A DNA stretch of 64,000 nucleotides from a virus: IMG/VR virus record IMGVR_UViG_3300050499_000294, positions 98-64,097 of that record; one strand, 5' to 3'. The position numbers were made by a program, and so were the translations under genes. The notes beneath the pieces are model-generated. The model had not been told where the DNA came from. It was given only the letters and a program-made list of their open reading frames with translations, and ran no database searches. Position 1 is the stretch's first letter; the number at the start of each line of letters is the position of its first letter. This document shows positions 34,507 to 57,295 of this stretch, piece after piece.

Positions 34507-35703
34507 TTAGACGGTAGGCCGTACGGCTACCTGAATAGATTTGACGGCATTCACCGCAAACCGTGCATGTTTGGCACCCGCCATAGCGACAGGGCTCATA
34601 CTGAGAAAATTGCGATTGAAGTTATAGAGCGTCGTCATGAGTTGCCAGCCTTCCTCTTCGAGCAAGCTCACGACTTTATAGCCAAGAGGTATATGCTGTT
34701 GCTTACGCAAGAGATCATCGGTCATGATGACCAAAATACCCTCAGGGGTGAGGCAGCGAGCAACTTGGTTGATAGCCGCTTTGAGGCCCTCCCGCCACTC
34801 TGCAAAGACATGCCCTAGCTCAGTATATTTGCCTTTCGCTATTGTCAGATAGGGGGGGTCGCAGATAGCGAGGTGGGCACATTGATCAGGAAACGGGAGA
34901 CTTATACGGGCATCGGCCTGTACAATCGCTGGATGCTGCGGGGCAATGTCCGCCATGAGGGCATAGCGTGGTCCGCTAAATTCTGCCTGCGTCACGTGCT
35001 GAAAATGGGTGTACCGCTTGAGAGTGGCTGCGAGGAGACCACCACCTGCGAAGGGATCAAGCACGGTATCGCCGGGATTGGAGAAGTAATGGATGAGGTT
35101 CGCATACAGGGCGGGATTGACCCCGCCTTCAAAGCCATCGAGGCGCTTATCGTCAGCGGCAAAGACCCAATGATTTGACACCTTGAGATCAAAGTCAGGG
35201 CGATACACGCCCTGTGCGGCATCGACACGGGCACGAATGGCACGCCGCAGTTCTGTCCGAAGAGGGCGAGTCTCTTCCGCCCAAGCGCGGACTTCTTCTT
35301 TTTCTGTACGTGGCAAATTACAGTTTGCCATGTGTCGATAGGCTTCATAGGGCAAGATATTATTGCCGGCAATAATATCTGGCCACGTTGCAAAGAGTTT
35401 GCGTGCATTAGCAAGAAACGAGGGCCGCACGGCAGGTTGCCGTTGCGTCTCCAGCCATGCTCGCAGGTCCATATTGGCCTTCTTGCTGATCTCATGCCGC
35501 GGTTTTCCATGCATCGCCGGATGGCGAAGTACTTCTTCGTCAAAGTCTCTCACTAATTGCGCTTTGTCCCAGCTCGTCGTCGCCTCGCGTGCTTCAATCG
35601 CAATGAAGGCTTGCCCATAGCGAGCAATAAGAGCTTCCCATGTTTCCTGGCTGGGGTCCTTTAGAGAAACGTCGACAAGATGTAATGCTGGAGCAGTGGC
35701 CAT
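34507..35703 (-). CDS. Amino-DNA methyltransferase (m6A/m4C) with helical N-terminal domain
   Basis: PGDTVLDPFAGGG (motif I) and ICDPPY (motif IV); TAATG-coupled to the ATPase. Confidence 0.85.
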   Translation of the reverse strand: MATAPALHLVDVSLKDPSQETWEALIARYGQAFIAIEAREATTSWDKAQLVRDFDEEVLRHPAMHGKPRHEISKKANMDLRAWLETQRQPAVRPSFLANARKLFATWPDIIAGNNILPYEAYRHMANCNLPRTEKEEVRAWAEETRPLRTELRRAIRARVDAAQGVYRPDFDLKVSNHWVFAADDKRLDGFEGGVNPALYANLIHYFSNPGDTVLDPFAGGGLLAATLKRYTHFQHVTQAEFSGPRYALMADIAPQHPAIVQADARISLPFPDQCAHLAICDPPYLTIAKGKYTELGHVFAEWREGLKAAINQVARCLTPEGILVIMTDDLLRKQQHIPLGYKVVSLLEEEGWQLMTTLYNFNRNFLSMSPVAMAGAKHARFAVNAVKSIQVAVRPTV

Positions 35704-37340
35704 TAGTGCCGTCTCCTAAAGATTGCAGGATTCGCGGCAATTAACGCCGCTGTTGCATCCCCACCGAAGGGATGGACCGTCGTAAAGTTGCCTTCCGTAC
35801 CGAGATTGTTCTCCTGGCCCTTGCCCACCCAGAAAAAGCCGCCCTGGAGTTCGAGGCGGTCATAGGTTTCCAGCCCTTCTTTGAGCAACACCTCTTCTAA
35901 ATGGCGCCGGTCTGTTCCGCTGCCCAACCCGCGACCAAACCACACCATCTGCGACTGGGTTAAGACCGTTTTCGCCACTTCGGCAATGCGTTGGGCAATA
36001 ACCATCCAGCCGACGCCATATTTACGCGTTTCACGGTAGGCCCGATTCACGACCGACCGTGTTTCATTGGTATCATCGACTCGCGCTTCGGGGACCCACC
36101 GCGTCCCCTCATCCAAAACCACGAGGGCATTGTTTTGTTGCCCCTGGGTATAGCGCCTTTGAGCATGCTGCGTCAGATGCTCCATGAGTTCCCTCATGAC
36201 GTAGACTTGTTCTTTTTCCCGGAGATACCGCGAATCCATCCGTATAACCACCTTGCGCCCATGCTCTAAAATACTCTGGACAAGATCACCCATGCGTTCG
36301 CGGCCATCAAAGAACTGCCTGACGCGCTCAAAGTCACGCTCAAAAGCCCGACGCCGAGCAGGCTGTGTCTGCAATTGAGCGACTTCTTGCAGCTTGGCTT
36401 TCTGGGTATTGCCGCCCCCGGCATAACAGGAGCCAATATGGACGCCAACGGCGTCAAGCACGCGCTCACTCGTCAGTTCCGCAATGGTGACATCCTTCTC
36501 ACCAAAAATCTCTTCGCTCACAAGCTCCCCCAACCTATAGGCAATGTCGTCGCGCATATTCCCTATATGCCGATGGAACGGAAACACCAGGAGATCAGCC
36601 AACGTGGCTCGATCGGTCATGCAAATGTCCTGGACATTGAGCACCTCAACCTTGATCCCCGCAGCCTGACAGACCTCCAGATAATTCCAATGGAAGTCGC
36701 CTCGATCATGGCGCGTGGCATCCGAGAGATCGCCCGCCGTATCGGGCATAAGTAAGCCCATCTGTGGATGTGCGCAGAGCTTCCCAGCGATCAACATCAG
36801 CGCAAAAACCGTTTTGCCTGATCCCGTTTGGCCATAAACCGCATACAAGCGGGCCTCCCCATACCCACCGTCTTCAACTCGGCCAAAATTGCGATTGATA
36901 ATCGTTGCGAGAATCTCTGGGGTATTGGGAATATGGCCCAGTGCGAGCCGATACCGCTCATCTTTCTCATTGTAGAGTCGTGTGAGATGGTCACTATCTG
37001 CGAGGGCAATGAGCGTCCCAGTCGATGGCCAGGCTTGTTGCGGGATTTTGACGTTTTTGGCATCGACCGTCCCAATAATCTGAATGGTCGATTGCTCAAT
37101 ATCGACTTCGCGGGACCATTGCTCCACGCGACCATGAACCATGAGATAGGGCTTGAAGGCAGGATCGTCATGAATCGGATTGCTCAGATTAATAGGCCCC
37201 ATGCGTCCCACAATGAGATTTAACTCGACCGGCAAGGCGACATATTGTCCTGTCAGCGGGGTTCCACGAGCCTCGTGGAGAATCGTACAGTAAATAAGGC
37301 CATCTTTGACACCATCGAGCGTCGCAATCCATCGTTCCAT
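35703..37340 (-). CDS. herA: HerA/FtsK-family ATPase
   Basis: N-terminal HAS-barrel-like region; Walker A GQTGSGKT; Walker B LVVLDEG; RETRKYGVGWMVIAQR; RBS AAGGAG before ATG 37340. Confidence 0.85.
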   Translation of the reverse strand: MERWIATLDGVKDGLIYCTILHEARGTPLTGQYVALPVELNLIVGRMGPINLSNPIHDDPAFKPYLMVHGRVEQWSREVDIEQSTIQIIGTVDAKNVKIPQQAWPSTGTLIALADSDHLTRLYNEKDERYRLALGHIPNTPEILATIINRNFGRVEDGGYGEARLYAVYGQTGSGKTVFALMLIAGKLCAHPQMGLLMPDTAGDLSDATRHDRGDFHWNYLEVCQAAGIKVEVLNVQDICMTDRATLADLLVFPFHRHIGNMRDDIAYRLGELVSEEIFGEKDVTIAELTSERVLDAVGVHIGSCYAGGGNTQKAKLQEVAQLQTQPARRRAFERDFERVRQFFDGRERMGDLVQSILEHGRKVVIRMDSRYLREKEQVYVMRELMEHLTQHAQRRYTQGQQNNALVVLDEGTRWVPEARVDDTNETRSVVNRAYRETRKYGVGWMVIAQRIAEVAKTVLTQSQMVWFGRGLGSGTDRRHLEEVLLKEGLETYDRLELQGGFFWVGKGQENNLGTEGNFTTVHPFGGDATAALIAANPAIFRRRH

Positions 37341-37359
37341 CAGACTCCTTTCGTCCGGG

Positions 37360-38394
37360 TTAGATGAGTGTTCTAGCCGGATCGAAAAAGGGCGTACGTG
37401 GAAAATTGAACATGCCGTAGAGCGTCGCAATGGCTGATAACCGCTTCGTCGTCCAATCCGCCAGAAACTGGGGCCAGGGCTCCACGCTTCGATCTGCCGT
37501 ATGGTACGTGAGGGCGGAAAGTAACGGCATCAGCCATGTATCATCACAGAGCCTCTCTAGCCGTGCTTCAATACGTAAGGCCCGTGAAAACGGATGGGGT
37601 TTAAAATAGGTCATGCCTAAGCGCCGCTCATAGAAATCACGCAGGGCCTGCCGCTCGTCATGCTTGAATCCACGCTTTTCCACGCCAAACCGGCCTTTAG
37701 TCCCTGTGACAAGCGGCTCTGGCGCGAGAAATTCTCCTGGCTGGAGTATCTGTCCAAGGAGTTCACGATCGGAGACAAGCGCACGATCAAACTGGTGTGT
37801 TCTGGCCTGAAGAGCCGCAAGCGTAATACGCTCACTACTCTTGCTCATCGCAATCACTTCAGGATTCTCAAGCAGGGCGAGAAAGCCGCCATCAACGACC
37901 AACCTTTCATACGCTCGATTAATACCAGCATTCCTCGTCCCACCGTTTATACGCCGCGTAATCGTTTGATTCACTTCCATGAGCATCGACCAGAATGACG
38001 TATCGGCAATCGTGGGCGTACAGCTGTCGACCAACAAGATATTTTCCGCGAGCATACGTAAAGGCGTACGGGCCAAGCTCAATTCTTCACCATTAATACC
38101 AGTTTCACGGATAGGGTCGCCGAACGACGTTTGGCCATCGGCATCGACACGGACTGCTTGAATCAAAATAGAACAGATATCGCCGAGCGGGACATCAATG
38201 ACCGCCGCATCCACTGCACCTAATGACGTGGGAGGCGCTGCTTCCACCGTGCGGATATGGAGCAAATCGCGCAACTCAGTGGCATCTTCCAGGAGGTTCA
38301 GTCTTTCGCCAATTTGACGAAGGAAGTCCTGATTGTCGGCAATCCATGGCGCGATTAGCCGTTCAGGAATAGGCCGTGACTCCTCCGCCATCAC
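37360..38394 (-). CDS. nurA: NurA-like nuclease (RNase H/PIWI-related fold)
   Basis: GAVDAA, RMLAE, IADTS, AMSKSS, LRIE and PWPQFLAD correspond to NurA motifs; directly upstream of HerA. Confidence 0.7.
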   Translation of the reverse strand: MMAEESRPIPERLIAPWIADNQDFLRQIGERLNLLEDATELRDLLHIRTVEAAPPTSLGAVDAAVIDVPLGDICSILIQAVRVDADGQTSFGDPIRETGINGEELSLARTPLRMLAENILLVDSCTPTIADTSFWSMLMEVNQTITRRINGGTRNAGINRAYERLVVDGGFLALLENPEVIAMSKSSERITLAALQARTHQFDRALVSDRELLGQILQPGEFLAPEPLVTGTKGRFGVEKRGFKHDERQALRDFYERRLGMTYFKPHPFSRALRIEARLERLCDDTWLMPLLSALTYHTADRSVEPWPQFLADWTTKRLSAIATLYGMFNFPRTPFFDPARTLI

Positions 38395-49307: not shown

Positions 49308-49841
49308 ATGACGATCACCCAGTTTGACACCGACCTCCGCGCCCTGGCTGAGCGGGCCAGCACCAAGTACCCTGCCGATACGAAGCGCATCGCCAAAGCG
49401 CTCCTCCTCGCCCTGAACGGCCATGTCCACGTCAACCCCGATAGCACCTGTGTCGTCACCTCGCAGGCAGACCCGGAGGTGGTCTACCGGGTCGCGCACG
49501 GCACGTGCGACTGTCCCGATGCCGTGCAGCATCCAGAGACGGCCTGCAAACATCGCTATGCCGCCGCGATGGTCAAACGCGCGCAGCGCCCCCGCATCAC
49601 CTATCGGGCGACGTACAAGGGCGACCAGGGCCAGGCGATCCGCGACGAGCAGATGCGCGTGTGGTTTCAGAGCGATGCCACGGATGAGGTCACGCGCCTG
49701 TATGACCACGACCGAGCCAATCTGCAACTTCATGGGCACCTGGGGTTAGTGGCCGAAGCCAAGCTGGCAGATCTTCAGCAAGGCGCGGACCTTGCTCGCC
49801 TTGAGGCCCACAAGACCGAGGCAACTATCCTCAACGCCTAG
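49308..49841 (+). CDS. SWIM zinc-finger-like protein
   Basis: GTCDCPD...ACKHRYAA. Confidence 0.7.
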   Translation: MTITQFDTDLRALAERASTKYPADTKRIAKALLLALNGHVHVNPDSTCVVTSQADPEVVYRVAHGTCDCPDAVQHPETACKHRYAAAMVKRAQRPRITYRATYKGDQGQAIRDEQMRVWFQSDATDEVTRLYDHDRANLQLHGHLGLVAEAKLADLQQGADLARLEAHKTEATILNA

Positions 49842-49857
49842 GAGGGGCAGACAGCCA

Positions 49858-50805
49858 ATGGAGGTAGCGTGCGATATCTGTGGGCAGCGGTTTCCCACCA
49901 ACCGGCCCCGACAACTACGCTGCTCACCAGCTTGTAGCAAAGCGGCGAAGGAGCGCTGGGGACGTACCAAGAGAGGCGTCATCCCAGCGCGTATGCGCGG
50001 GGCCATCATGCAATGCCTCATCTGTGGCAACGACTTGATGCGAAAAGGCGCGACACAGCAATACTGTGCGGTATGCAAAAAGATCCACGAAAAAGCCTAT
50101 GCGCGACGCTATAAAGGCAGTGCAGAAGAGAGATGCATTGGCGCGATCTTCTCCTGTGTCGTCTGCGGAACAAGCACCGCGCGCACAGGAGCGCATCAGA
50201 AGTATTGCTCAGATACCTGTTATGCCATAGCCAACGTGCGCCGAGACAGGATGCGACATGCTCGTGTACTAATCGTCGGCTCACTTTTCTCGTGTCATAC
50301 CTGTGGCAAGACGAGCAGGCGCGGGCGCAATTGGCGACAAAAATACTGCTCAGACGTCTGCCGAAGAGCAGGAGAGCGCACAGCAAAACGTGAGCGATTA
50401 GGGCGAACACAATTTGTTGGTGCCCTCTTTGCCTGTGCTATCTGCGGCACGGAAGCCCTGCGGACGACTGGATCACAAATTTATTGCTCAGAGGAGTGCT
50501 ATCAGACCGCCGCCTATCGTCATCGGGCAGCACGCATCAAGACAAGCATAGGCACGCGCTATACGCGACGACACATCTTTACCAGAGATGGCTGGCGCTG
50601 CCAATCGTGCTGGAAAAAGGTGCGAGATAACGTGCCGCTTCGCCATAGCGCACGTGCCACCATTGACCATATTCTCCCCCTCACGAAAGGCGGACTTGAA
50701 TGTGAAAGTAACGTCCACACGCTCTGCTGGCCCTGTAATCACGCCAAAGGAAACCGCGTAGGATCGAATGATCAATTACGGCTGGCACTGGGCGAGATCA
50801 TATAA
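49858..50805 (+). CDS. HNH endonuclease with five tandem Zn-ribbon modules
   Basis: Repeated CxxCG...Q.YCSxxC; C-terminal TIDHILPLTKGG...NVHTLCWPCNHAKG. Confidence 0.85.
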   Translation: MEVACDICGQRFPTNRPRQLRCSPACSKAAKERWGRTKRGVIPARMRGAIMQCLICGNDLMRKGATQQYCAVCKKIHEKAYARRYKGSAEERCIGAIFSCVVCGTSTARTGAHQKYCSDTCYAIANVRRDRMRHARVLIVGSLFSCHTCGKTSRRGRNWRQKYCSDVCRRAGERTAKRERLGRTQFVGALFACAICGTEALRTTGSQIYCSEECYQTAAYRHRAARIKTSIGTRYTRRHIFTRDGWRCQSCWKKVRDNVPLRHSARATIDHILPLTKGGLECESNVHTLCWPCNHAKGNRVGSNDQLRLALGEII

Positions 50806-52803: not shown

Positions 52804-53298
52804 TTGGCAGGTGATGGCCAGCCTGGGCGACTGGATGGAGGGCAGGCATTGACCATAGCACGGAATATCAATGAACGATTCTTTGAAAAGGTCCGTCACG
52901 ATGCAAGTGGGTGTTGGCTCTGGGAAGCTGGCCTAACAGACCACGGCTATGGAACATTTCGTCTAGGCGGACGCAGCGATGGCAAAATCTATGCCCATAT
53001 TTATACGTATGAACTCTTGATTGGTCGTGTACCAGATGGGCTTGAATTAGATCATCTCTGCCGCACTCCCTCTTGTTGTAATCCATGGCATCTTGAGCCA
53101 GTAACGCACCGCATCAATAGTCTTCGTGGCATCTCGCCTACTATCCTGATGCATCGAGCCAATCTCTGTAAACGCGGCCATTCTCTGCTTGGTGACAATG
53201 CCTATGTCAGACCTAGTGGCGAGCGCAACTGCCGTATCTGTCTGCGTATGCGCAAAAGTATTGTCTGGAAAACCCGCACACGCGAGGAGCTTGTATGA
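52804..53298 (+). CDS. HNH endonuclease
   Basis: GCWLWEAG...YAHIYTYEL...ELDHLCRTPSCCNPWHLEPVTHRIN; real start probably TTG 52849. Confidence 0.9.
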   Translation: MAGDGQPGRLDGGQALTIARNINERFFEKVRHDASGCWLWEAGLTDHGYGTFRLGGRSDGKIYAHIYTYELLIGRVPDGLELDHLCRTPSCCNPWHLEPVTHRINSLRGISPTILMHRANLCKRGHSLLGDNAYVRPSGERNCRICLRMRKSIVWKTRTREELV

Positions 53299-54968: not shown

Positions 54969-57033
54969 ATGCATCAGCCACGAAAGGATCTGGGCGAAGT
55001 GCTTCAGGACACCTGGTCGGCCTGTTATGACACAGGCTGGCAAGGCTTGATCTGTCCTGAAGCCTTCGCCCACTGAGGACCCCGCCAAATTTTCCCGCAG
55101 CTTGATCCAGCGTATCTATCAGCACTGCGCCGCCGAGGGATGGCTGGCACCAGGATCAACAGTACTAGATTGCTTCGCGGGTACCGGACTCGGGGGGTTG
55201 GATGCCGCCCTCGCCGGCTATCGTTTTATCGGTGTAGAGTTGGAGGCGCGTTTTTGCGCCCTGGCCCACGGCTTTGACTGTGGCGGCTCGGACGCCAAGC
55301 ACGAGGCCTGTAGCCAGCAAGAATCCCACGAGCCGCACCACGTCACGGGAAACCTGGAGTTGTGGCAACGGCGCTACGGGCACCTCCCGCAGTGGGTGGC
55401 GCCGACGCTGCTCCAAGGCGATTCGCGGGCACTGGGGACCGTACTGCGGGACCAGATCACGGCATGCGTGGCCTCGCCACCATTCGGTGCAGAACAATCA
55501 GGCGGGGGCATTGCGATAACCGGCACTCCTAGCCAACGCAAGTCCCCTGGCTCTACGTCACCTGTAGGCTATCAGCATCAGGGCACGGCCCCCGGTCAGC
55601 TCGGCGCGCTCCCCCCCGGCTCGCTCGATGCGGCGATCGCCTCCCCGCCCCATGTCCACGGCCTGGGCAAAGAGCATACCTACTCCGACCACGCCAAGCG
55701 CGAGCGGGACAGCCACAGCGGCATCTACCGCGACAAGGGCATTGCCGACCCGTACTATGGCAGTGACCCGGCGCAACTGGGGAACCTGCCAGCGGGGTCG
55801 CTCGATGCGTGCCTGAGTAGCCCGCCGTACGCAGACGGTTGTCACCGCACAGGCGGGACAAATACCCCCCCCGCAGTACGCGGCGATGGGACGGCCTTCA
55901 GAGAAGGGCAAAGCATGGCGTTTACTCACTACGGCAGCGCCCCGGCGCAGCTGGGGAACCTGCCAGCGGGGTCGGTGGAGGCGGCGATCTCGTCGCCCCC
56001 GTATGAGGCCAGTGTCACGGTAGGCCATGCACCAGAGAAGGACATTGCCAGGGCTGTCGCCGCAGGGCATACGCTTGCCTCCATGGGGAATCCCGGCGGG
56101 CAACTCCGCTATGCCTTTGAATATGGCACCGACCCGGCTCAGCTTGGCAACGAGCACGGCACCACGTTTTGGGAAGCCAGTAAGCAGATACTCGAGCAAG
56201 TAGTGGCCCTATTAAAACCAAATGGCATTGCCGTATGGGTGGTCAAATCATACGTGCGCGAAGGGCAAATTGTTGATTTTCCAGGACAATGGAGAACTTT
56301 ATGCGAATCCCTGGGCCTGGTCACGCTACACGAGCACCACGCGCTCCTGGTCGAGGACCACGGCACGCAGGGTTCGCTGTTTGGCGCCGACACCACACAC
56401 CGCACCGAGCGCAAGAGCTTCTTCCGCCGCCTGCATGAGAAGAAGCGCCCCGACCTGGCGATTGATTATGAGGTGGTCCTGTGTATGCAGAAGCGCGAGG
56501 GGACGACAGCAGGGAATGTTGAGGTGTGCGTAAGTTCCCCACCGTATGCGGCCCACACCGTCCACGGCAACGATGGTATTGACTGGGCACGCGCCAGCAA
56601 TGACGGCCAAACACGGGGCCAGTCGGCGGCAGCCGACTATGGTCACACTGAGGGCCAACTGGGGGCGATGCCCGCCGGCAGCCTCGACGCGTGTGTGAGT
56701 AGCCCCCCGTATAACCTCCCCATGTCCCAGGACCATAACGGCAGTCGGGGCGGCGCTCGGGGCACAACCCCGAGCGAGCAGGGCGCATTCGTGAAGTATG
56801 GCAGCACGCCGGGACAACTCGAAGGCATGCCCCCCGGCAGCCTGGACGCCGTGGTGAGTAGCCCGCCCTATGCCGCGTCCTTCCGTGGACAGACGGAGAC
56901 GGCGACGCGCATAGAACTGGAGAAACGGTTTCCACACTGGCACACCGGTGGACGCTCGCAACTTGATACGCCACGTGGCTACGGCACCACGCCGGGCAAC
57001 CTGGGCAACCTCCCCGAGGGCCTGACGCCCTAG
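54969..57033 (+). CDS. Modular amino-DNA methyltransferase with seven SPP(Y/F/H) modules; frame interrupted at 55074-55080
   Basis: RBS and ATG 54969 give ...EAFAH then TGA; the +1 frame resumes PAKFSRSLIQRIY...VLDCFAGTG (motif I); seven SPPx blocks. Confidence 0.8.
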
Positions 57034-57046
57034 CAAGGAGTCCTCC

Positions 57047-57295
57047 ATGCGCCGCACCTCCACCGCCCGGCGCCGTGCCTATCGGCAGTTGCTGCGCGAT
57101 CCGCGCTGGCAGCAGACGCGCCTGCGCATCTTCGCCCGCGATCACTGGACCTGCCAAGCGTGCGGGGCCACGACGCGGGAGTTGCAGGTGCACCACAAGT
57201 GGTACGTGGCGGGGGTGTTGCCCTGGGAGGTCCCGCCCCAGGCGCTGGTGACCCTCTGTGTGGACTGCCACAGGAAGCAGAAGAAGCGGCACTAA
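57047..57295 (+). CDS. Small HNH nuclease
   Basis: CQACG...LQVHHKWY...LVTLCVDCH. Confidence 0.85.
   Translation: MRRTSTARRRAYRQLLRDPRWQQTRLRIFARDHWTCQACGATTRELQVHHKWYVAGVLPWEVPPQALVTLCVDCHRKQKKRH

Follow-up and report, generated by a model that had tools for sequence, protein, structure and literature searches.

The window analysed here is a stretch of 64,000 nucleotides that makes up nearly the whole of a 64,380-nt provirus record in IMG/VR. The provirus is siphovirus-like and carries tape measure, GpJ-like tail tip, portal and Mu-F genes. Its early region encodes, in this order, HNH, VRR-NUC, HNH, AntA, Bro-N, a methyltransferase open reading frame (ORF), HNH, AAA_25 and RecT.

The methyltransferase ORF lies at positions 55102-57033 on the plus strand. 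Its translation is 643 residues long, and residue numbers (aa) refer to this translation. It consists of two halves of a methyltransferase core and seven repeated units, called cassettes. A short leader ORF precedes it in another frame. The features of the locus are as follows.

54969-55076, plus strand: leader ORF of 35 codons, with a good ribosome site (AGGAG-N5-ATG); it encodes the conserved N-terminus W..CY..W.GLI.PEAFAH and ends with TGA within AHPAK
55074-55080, plus strand: 7-nt insert TGAGGAC, after the His codon and before the Pro codon of AHPAK; it places the body in the +1 frame
55102-55452, plus strand: N half of the Rossmann core, aa 1-117, with the rest of motif X, motif I, the acidic VELE of beta2 and GDSR (motif III); assigned from Pfam, pLDDT >90 and near-invariant residues
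55453-55620, plus strand: cassette 1, aa 118-173, with strand ITACVA, SPPF, loop type 34 and closing GQLGALPPG
55621-55797, plus strand: cassette 2, aa 174-232, with SLDAAIA, SPPH, loop type 6 and closing YGSDPAQLGNLPAG
55798-55971, plus strand: cassette 3, aa 233-290, with SPPY and loop type 90, flanked by exact 22-nt direct repeats
55972-56148, plus strand: cassette 4, aa 291-349, with SPPY, loop type 29 and closing YGTDPAQLG, leading into helix alphaD
56149-56511, plus strand: C half of the core, aa 350-470, with helix alphaD, beta5-beta7 and the KSFFRRL motif; phrog_12517
56512-56679, plus strand: cassette 5, aa 471-526, post-core, with NVEVCVS, SPPY and loop type 91
56680-56838, plus strand: cassette 6, aa 527-579, post-core, with SPPY and loop type 2
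56839-57033, plus strand: cassette 7, aa 580-643 and the stop codon, post-core, with SPPY, loop type 25 and closing YGTTPGNLGNLPEG at the protein end

Motifs and Domain Content

The initial annotation described one SAM-binding motif and seven motif IV modules, four before and three after the core, and a regular-expression search of the translation finds just this. SPP(Y/F/H) occurs at aa 125, 181, 240, 298, 479, 534 and 587. Four of these units lie N-terminal and three C-terminal of the conserved C-terminal half (aa 350-470). Motif I is present once, as DCFAGTG at aa 23-29, with VELE and GDSR downstream; its residues D23, F25 and G27 are at least 90% conserved across the family.

Each unit of the window protein begins with a short hydrophobic strand (xLDAxxSS), followed by SPP(Y/F/H), 28-40 variable residues, YGxxPxQLG and finally (L/M)PxG. 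The seven cassettes are of seven different loop types, of which types 6, 2 and 25 appear as the first cassette in other proteins. The window protein carries several tandem, exchangeable and mutually different modules on one core.

Near-identical DNA had also been noticed at the module borders near 55780 and 55955, and it contains an exact 22-nt repeat. The string GGGGAACCTGCCAGCGGGGTCG is found in exactly two copies, at 55779 and 55953, where 0 are expected (100 shuffles). Both copies sit within 56-nt junction repeats that are 88% alike, and their spacing of 174 nt equals one cassette length.

Recognizable similarity to known methyltransferases is concentrated at the N-terminus. The Pfam model N6_N4_Mtase (PF01555) matches only aa 16-55, with 35.8 bits against a gathering cut-off of 26.7, and the alignment covers only profile positions 180-219 of 221, that is, the motif X-I segment. 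The CcrM NCBIfam model, phrog_67 and the PDB chains 8urk, 2zie (E 5e-4) and 6pbd align only within aa 16-56. In class-beta enzymes this same segment is the end. The linear order here is X-I-II-III, cassettes (IV), V-VIII, cassettes, which is gamma-like; the class-beta order (IV-VIII, recognition domain, X-I-III) is not found in the window protein.

The C half (aa 350-470) has a single match, phrog_12517, of unknown function. It has no match in Pfam or among PDB sequences, also when searched as a core profile, and a PDB sequence search with cassette 4 plus the core returns nothing meaningful. The N half carries a Cys/His-rich insert at aa 57-83.

Family and Distribution

An exhaustive phmmer search against 1.84 billion cluster representatives yields 2245 matches at E<=1e-3, 951 of them at E<=1e-30. 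The number of modules in homologues, which the initial annotation had named as a check, ranges from 2 to 11, so that the repetition is a trait of the family rather than an oddity of one genome. Four to five junctions per protein are commonest (junction HMM, best 213 proteins). The usual architecture is an N half, n cassettes and a C half, with the protein ending ~2 residues past the core. In a subclade that includes the window protein, 1-4 additional cassettes follow the core.

Members are nearly all metagenomic and mostly viral, and are labelled "hypothetical" or "DNA methylase". Genomes were scanned with a core-only alignment, the full alignment (A1) being too diverse; a scan of IMG/VR with the whole-protein pattern gives zero matches. 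The core-only search finds 73 family loci in IMG/VR. In 185,579 species genomes it finds only 3 loci, all in metagenome-assembled genomes, and tblastn, with either the whole protein or the core as query, finds no match in 50,697 GenBank phage records.

The literature searched contains no description of an amino-methyltransferase family with tandem motif IV. Published mentions of "DPPY motifs" refer to single motifs. This phage-borne methyltransferase-like family is undescribed in the literature searched.

Conservation of the Cassettes

Among 968 units in the family, 917 (95%) read SPP[YFW] and 12 read SPPH. SPP[YFW] makes up 94-96% of the units whether their position is first, middle, last pre-core or post-core, and the period is ~57 residues. 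Over 1290 junctions the consensus is Y100 G95 x [TS] x G85 [QN]99 L89 ... [ML]91 ... G78 x h [DE] A h h S74 S99 P98 P98 [YFW]97. Terminal cassettes keep the closing YG..QLG although nothing lies beyond it.

Repeats of this kind could in principle be neutral tandem duplications in decay, of which a single unit matters. The low order predicted for the cassettes would suit such an origin. Against it, SPP[YFW] is retained at every position, loop types are conserved across backbones whose cores are only 30-55% identical, and types are non-redundant within proteins. The 95% retention in 968 units, together with the junction consensus, practically rules out decaying duplicates, and this explanation is next to impossible. 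Judged by conservation, every cassette is under selection.

Exchange and Turnover of Cassettes

The variable loops fall into discrete types. Clustering of 1086 loops gives 126 types with several members and 230 singletons, and each type has a tight length range. A given type can be found at first, middle, last or post-core positions. Type 2, for instance, has 41 members, 9 of them first, 24 middle and 8 post-core; type 6 has 29 members, at all positions. Type 29 is the last before the core in all 7 of its members.

Types are rarely repeated within a protein. Repetition is seen in 6 of 275 proteins, compared with 21.8 +/- 4.2 (minimum 11) when the labels are shuffled 500 times.

The aromatic residue of the SPPx that precedes the loop is type-specific. 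Phenylalanine is found in 34 of 35 members of type 4 and in 16 of 16 of type 13. Type 9 has 15 members with W and 6 with F. Across the family as a whole, the residue is Y in 66%, F in 24% and W in 6%. Some loop types also have their own closing motif. The inherited unit therefore appears to be SPPx, loop and closing motif together.

In both halves of its core, the window protein shows 79-90% identity to relatives with unrelated cassettes, and the C half alone is 81-90% identical to that of close relatives that differ in their cassettes. Conversely, single window cassettes are 74-96% identical to cassettes in backbones with 53-63% identical cores. Cassette 4 is 94% identical to two family proteins (P0154 and P0157). 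Pairs of proteins with 85-94% identical cores have only 1-3 of their 4-7 types in common. Cassette turnover, by these comparisons, outpaces backbone divergence.

Cassettes also move across the core. At the DNA level, post-core cassette 7 is 83% identical to a pre-core cassette of a related locus (L002, 1068-1211), a level no different from that of the backbone (82-84%). Cassette 6 is 86% identical to a post-core cassette of L002 and 78% identical to a pre-core cassette of another locus (L020). Cassette 2 has 85% DNA identity to L002 1200-1415.

The initial annotation had proposed that catalytic loop and recognition segment are shuffled as a unit. The discrete, position-independent types, the rarity of repeats, the type-specific aromatic residue, the few types shared by close relatives and the relocation between pre-core and post-core positions support unit-wise shuffling, with cassettes apparently inherited, exchanged and repositioned whole.

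Contig joints were also considered as cassette deletions within the window phage, and this was rejected. The pieces were matched at a 90% likeness cut-off (many at 90-95%), with short sides and unknown letters between them, and probably represent related genes of the same communities.

A Possible Multispecific Enzyme with Exchangeable Catalytic Cassettes

The gene quite possibly encodes the body of a phage orphan amino-methyltransferase with several target specificities. Such an enzyme would have one Rossmann core, split into an N half (motifs X, I, II and III) and a C half (alphaD, beta5-beta7). The core would lack a fixed central strand, which would instead be supplied by an array of 2-11 self-contained cassettes. 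Each cassette would provide a beta4-like strand, SPP(Y/F/W), a type-specific loop of ~17-50 residues and a closing YGxxPGQLGxMPxG, and would act both as catalytic loop and as target-recognition module.

Both halves of the core are nearly constant, and family members have no other variable region or recognition domain. Any differences in target choice must therefore lie in the cassettes, and the array would give one enzyme several target specificities. Several methylation specificities could in turn protect phage DNA against several restriction systems.

One cassette would occupy the single beta4 slot of each folded core. The slot might be filled in cis while the protein folds, by what would be a natural version of alternate-frame folding, or in trans when subunits form an oligomer. 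The full version of this idea is a natural "alternate-frame" enzyme whose split core seats any of up to eleven cassettes, on whichever side of the C half they lie, in cis or in trans. This version is somewhat unlikely. If it held, one polypeptide would give rise to a mixture of methyltransferases, and phages would re-equip themselves by swapping 57-residue cassettes.

To our knowledge, no natural enzyme swaps a central strand among alternatives. In engineered alternate frame folding proteins, and in serpin loop-to-strand insertion, a duplicated or mobile segment competes for or enters one central position of a fold. Alternate frame folding is artificial and serpin insertion is one-way, and neither selects among different catalytic loops.

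Structure Predictions and the Seat of the Catalytic Strand

Structure prediction, also suggested with the initial annotation, is confident for the core of the window protein and uninformative for its modules. In an AlphaFold2 model of the seven-cassette protein (122-sequence alignment), aa 1-120 and 350-470 have pLDDT >90, and all seven cassettes have low confidence (pLDDT ~30-65), with no beta4 seated. An ESM Atlas model is poor (pTM 0.30), and Foldseek gives only weak matches for the seven-cassette model.

A relative with two cassettes (328 residues) is predicted better, with pLDDT 81 and pTM 0.78. Its model has the seven-stranded Rossmann-like fold, of which only the two halves are confident in the window protein. 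The strand and SPPF of the first cassette are seated as beta4 (pLDDT 93), and the second cassette is disordered.

The model of this relative suggests a different arrangement, with one fixed catalytic centre. Only the cassette set by its position in the chain, such as the first after helix alphaC, would be seated and catalytic, and the others would form a modular DNA-binding or base-reading array in place of the missing target-recognition domain, or serve in oligomerization. The beta4-alphaD loop, where the pre-core cassettes are located, faces DNA in known amino-methyltransferases (reviewed in PMC7544214). An additional point in its favour is that no member with fewer than two cassettes is found among the best family matches; a multispecific enzyme does not require this absence and leaves it unexplained.

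The distribution of the cassettes fits a fixed centre less well. The same loop types appear at first, middle, last and post-core positions, and cassettes move between pre-core and post-core sites. No type is reserved for the seated position, and the order of types is not conserved, unlike what a composite binding surface would need. An unseated cassette would also have no obvious need to keep a buried-type strand and SPP[YFW] at 94-96%. A fixed centre is the main alternative, somewhat less likely than the multispecific enzyme.

Position independence, non-repetition and retained beta4-slot features fit equivalent self-contained units better than a fixed composite binding surface. Together they favour the multispecific enzyme with alternative seating, of which the seating itself is the less probable part.

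A three-chain prediction places residues 525-537 of cassette 6 (strand and SPPY) against beta1/motif I (aa 19-26) and beta5 (aa 375-382). The prediction was run without alignments, and its score of 0.53, compared with 0.02 for the best control, is rated as weak support, in a range (scores <=0.60) where only 5 of 78 solved complexes fall, along with each of the 4 passing mismatches. The mark for a complex is reached by 51 of the 78 solved complexes and by 2 of 108 mismatched pairs. The result weakly supports the compatibility of a post-core strand with the canonical slot, which is compatibility and not binding, and the score may merely reflect likeness to a canonical beta4. Taken together, the predictions give no consistent seat for the catalytic strand and no support for more than one seat.

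Substrate

DNA is the most likely substrate, to judge from motifs and gene neighbourhood. The first residue of motif IV is Ser in 99% of the family, and SPPY is typical of N4-cytosine DNA methyltransferases (PMC8885841). SPPY thus suggests an N4-cytosine target, although it is not decisive.

Alternatively, the enzyme could act on RNA, at an exocyclic amino group as in the m2G type of Trm11/TrmN, or on glutamine in a protein, with cassettes that fit several such substrates. The fold of the two-cassette model points in this direction, as its best Foldseek matches are the class I methyltransferases TrmN, Trm11 and Trm14 (E ~1e-8, TM 0.43). Homologues match PF01170, PF03602 and PF05175. The motif (D/N/S)PP(Y/F) is itself also used by m2G and glutamine methyltransferases.

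This alternative is very unlikely, however. The motif X-I region matches models of DNA methylases (PF01555, the CcrM NCBIfam model and phrog_67), and there is no THUMP or other RNA-binding domain. In the window the gene sits among phage replication and recombination genes, and the loci L002 and L003 have a matching early-region setting with VRR-NUC, primase-type genes and RecT.

Comparison with Known Systems

Multispecific C5-cytosine methyltransferases. DNA methyltransferases of this kind, from the Bacillus phages SPR, phi3T, rho11s and H2 (Trautner and co-workers, EMBO J 1992 and 1996; refs 86-87 in PMC7544214), are the closest precedent. Like the window family, they are phage-encoded orphans with one core and tandem, interchangeable, non-redundant modules. 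In the Bacillus phage enzymes each module corresponds to one target and the role is anti-restriction; both may apply to the window family. The Bacillus phage recognition domains are placed between motifs VIII and IX, lack the catalytic motif and depend on a single catalytic loop common to all, with C5 chemistry. The modules of the window family, in contrast, each carry a central strand and a catalytic SPPx, and are found before or after the C half.

Class-beta amino-methyltransferases. These enzymes (PF01555; TTHA0409, PDB 2ZIE/2ZIF/2ZIG; CcrM; M.PvuII) resemble the window protein in the sequence of the motif X-I region and in an "LP..S.D....SPPY" signature ahead of motif IV. The window protein differs in having motif I before motif IV, seven copies of motif IV instead of one, and no separate recognition domain.

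Trm11, TrmN and Trm14. Fold, motif order (I...IV) and the amino-methyltransferase chemistry of (D/N)PP(Y/F) are alike (PDB 3TMA, 5E71, 6ZXW, 3TM5). These proteins differ in having a THUMP domain, an RNA substrate and a single motif IV, and in sequence they are just 11-14% identical.

Type I HsdS and phase-variable Type III Mod. Here too, discrete recognition cassettes are swapped between conserved methylase genes (PMC3311624, PMC1557822). However, Mod has one and HsdS has two cassettes per polypeptide, which are for recognition only, and the catalytic motif is never in tandem (PMC3311624, PMC1557822).

If each cassette is a catalytic and recognition unit, the multispecific C5 enzymes would have in this family their first counterpart among amino-methyltransferases. 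The family would follow a different building principle, in which the active-site strand itself is the swapped part. This would bear on how phages keep pace with diverse restriction systems, on how target recognition can be encoded in ~30-40 residues beside motif IV, and on whether one of several alternatives can be picked as the central strand of a Rossmann fold. The cassettes would then also supply ready-made parts with which methyltransferase specificity could be engineered. Should a single cassette be catalytic, the literature searched would still offer no explanation for a family of >900 clusters with a conserved array of pseudo-active-site loops.

Interruption near the N-Terminus

The ORF at 55102-57033 described in the initial annotation is open throughout, but TTG at 55102 is merely the first start codon after a stop. 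The annotated extent of the gene also missed an interruption near the N-terminus. The 35 N-terminal residues of the family are encoded in another frame, by the leader ORF at 54969-55076. The TGAGGAC insert follows the His codon of AHPAK, ending the leader ORF and shifting the frame. No ribosome-binding site of its own precedes the body ORF. The window copy may therefore not yield a full-length protein.

A seven-cassette ORF that is decaying or silenced in the provirus, leaving an inactive copy or only a fragment, would account for this arrangement. Through the frame break at 55074-55080, the body is cut off from the first 35 codons, in which part of motif X is encoded. The TTG at 55102 lacks a Shine-Dalgarno sequence where the leader ORF has AGGAG, and the stretch is found in no RNA run. 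On the other hand, no stop interrupts the 643 codons of the body, and all its motifs are intact. Identical DNA (0 differences) is present in contigs of three other rhizosphere runs (X2, X3 and X5), which are independent metagenome runs. An inactive copy is accordingly unlikely.

TGA reassignment was considered for the N-terminal stop and rejected: in the window, ordinary genes terminate at TGA as well as at TAG and TAA, and tRNA genes are absent.

Inserts at exactly the same codon are found in seven related loci, each starting with a stop codon. Two are 6 nt long, three are 9 nt (with those of L003 and L007 being the same), one is 7 nt and one is 5 nt. The cores of these loci range from 91% down to 37% identity to that of the window. 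The recurrence of stop-led inserts at one codon over this range suggests a split or recoding site under selection and not decay. The stop is adjacent to, or overlaps with, a GTG start codon in L003, L007 and L038.

Possible variation in the cassette set

The methyltransferase ORF (55102-57033, +) carries exact direct repeats within its run of pre-core cassettes.

55779-55800 and 55953-55974: exact 22-nt direct repeats, spacing 174 nt

Recombination between these repeats would remove exactly one cassette, cassette 3, and would do so in frame.

Contigs from rhizosphere metagenome runs X2-X5 match the junction sequences at 55425-55930 and 56494-56980 of the window, and then run on into cassettes that are different from those of the window. 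For instance, the loose end of one contig at 55632 reads CLSSPPYAAL. Judging by these sequences, the same communities probably hold related genes with differing cassette sets.

Interruption of the AHPAK motif

Of about 66 loci, 8 (the window among them) have the conserved AHPAK motif near the N-terminus of the methyltransferase broken, always at one identical codon. Related IMG/VR loci are given with the position in the locus after the colon.

Sites of the AHPAK inserts
Window 55074-55080
L002:669
L003:5998
L007:4122
L018:4416
L053:4023
L038:~4200
L068:~3844

The inserts in these eight loci are 5, 6, 7 or 9 nt long, and the first codon of every one is a stop (TGA, with TAG once). Inserts of 6 and 9 nt keep the reading frame; those of 5 and 7 nt shift it. 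L003, L007 and L038 each have a GTG start codon that lies directly against the stop or shares nucleotides with it. The insert could mark a point where the gene is split and its parts are translationally coupled, or else a recoding site, with readthrough or a +1 shift at the stop.

Stops or frame changes also occur within the methyltransferase gene of two relatives, L008 (5370-5974) and L019 (629-1084). In L008 the post-core cassettes are out of frame, behind a TAA, and in L019 the frame shifts after motif I and ahead of the cassettes. Either gene may be a broken copy or an additional case of recoding.

Cys/His-rich insert in the core

The N half of the core contains a small insert between beta2 and the next helix.

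55270-55350 (+): Cys/His-rich insert, aa 57-83 of the ORF, with C60, H67, C70, H75, H78 and H79

It is predicted with high model confidence as a small hairpin, and may be a zinc knuckle. A longer, CPxC-type insert is found at the equivalent site in some relatives (locus L024 and proteins P0105 and P0107).

Other genes in the window

34507-35703 (-): second amino-methyltransferase, 398 aa, motif I VLDPFAGGG followed by a single DPPY
35703-37430 (-): HerA/Zot-like ATPase
49792-50805, 52804-53298 and 57047-57295 (+): three HNH endonucleases, early region

By its motifs, the second methyltransferase, which adjoins the ATPase gene, is of the ordinary single-cassette kind. The last HNH gene lies directly downstream of the seven-cassette ORF; the counterpart position in L002 is occupied by an 81-aa gene (2348-2593).
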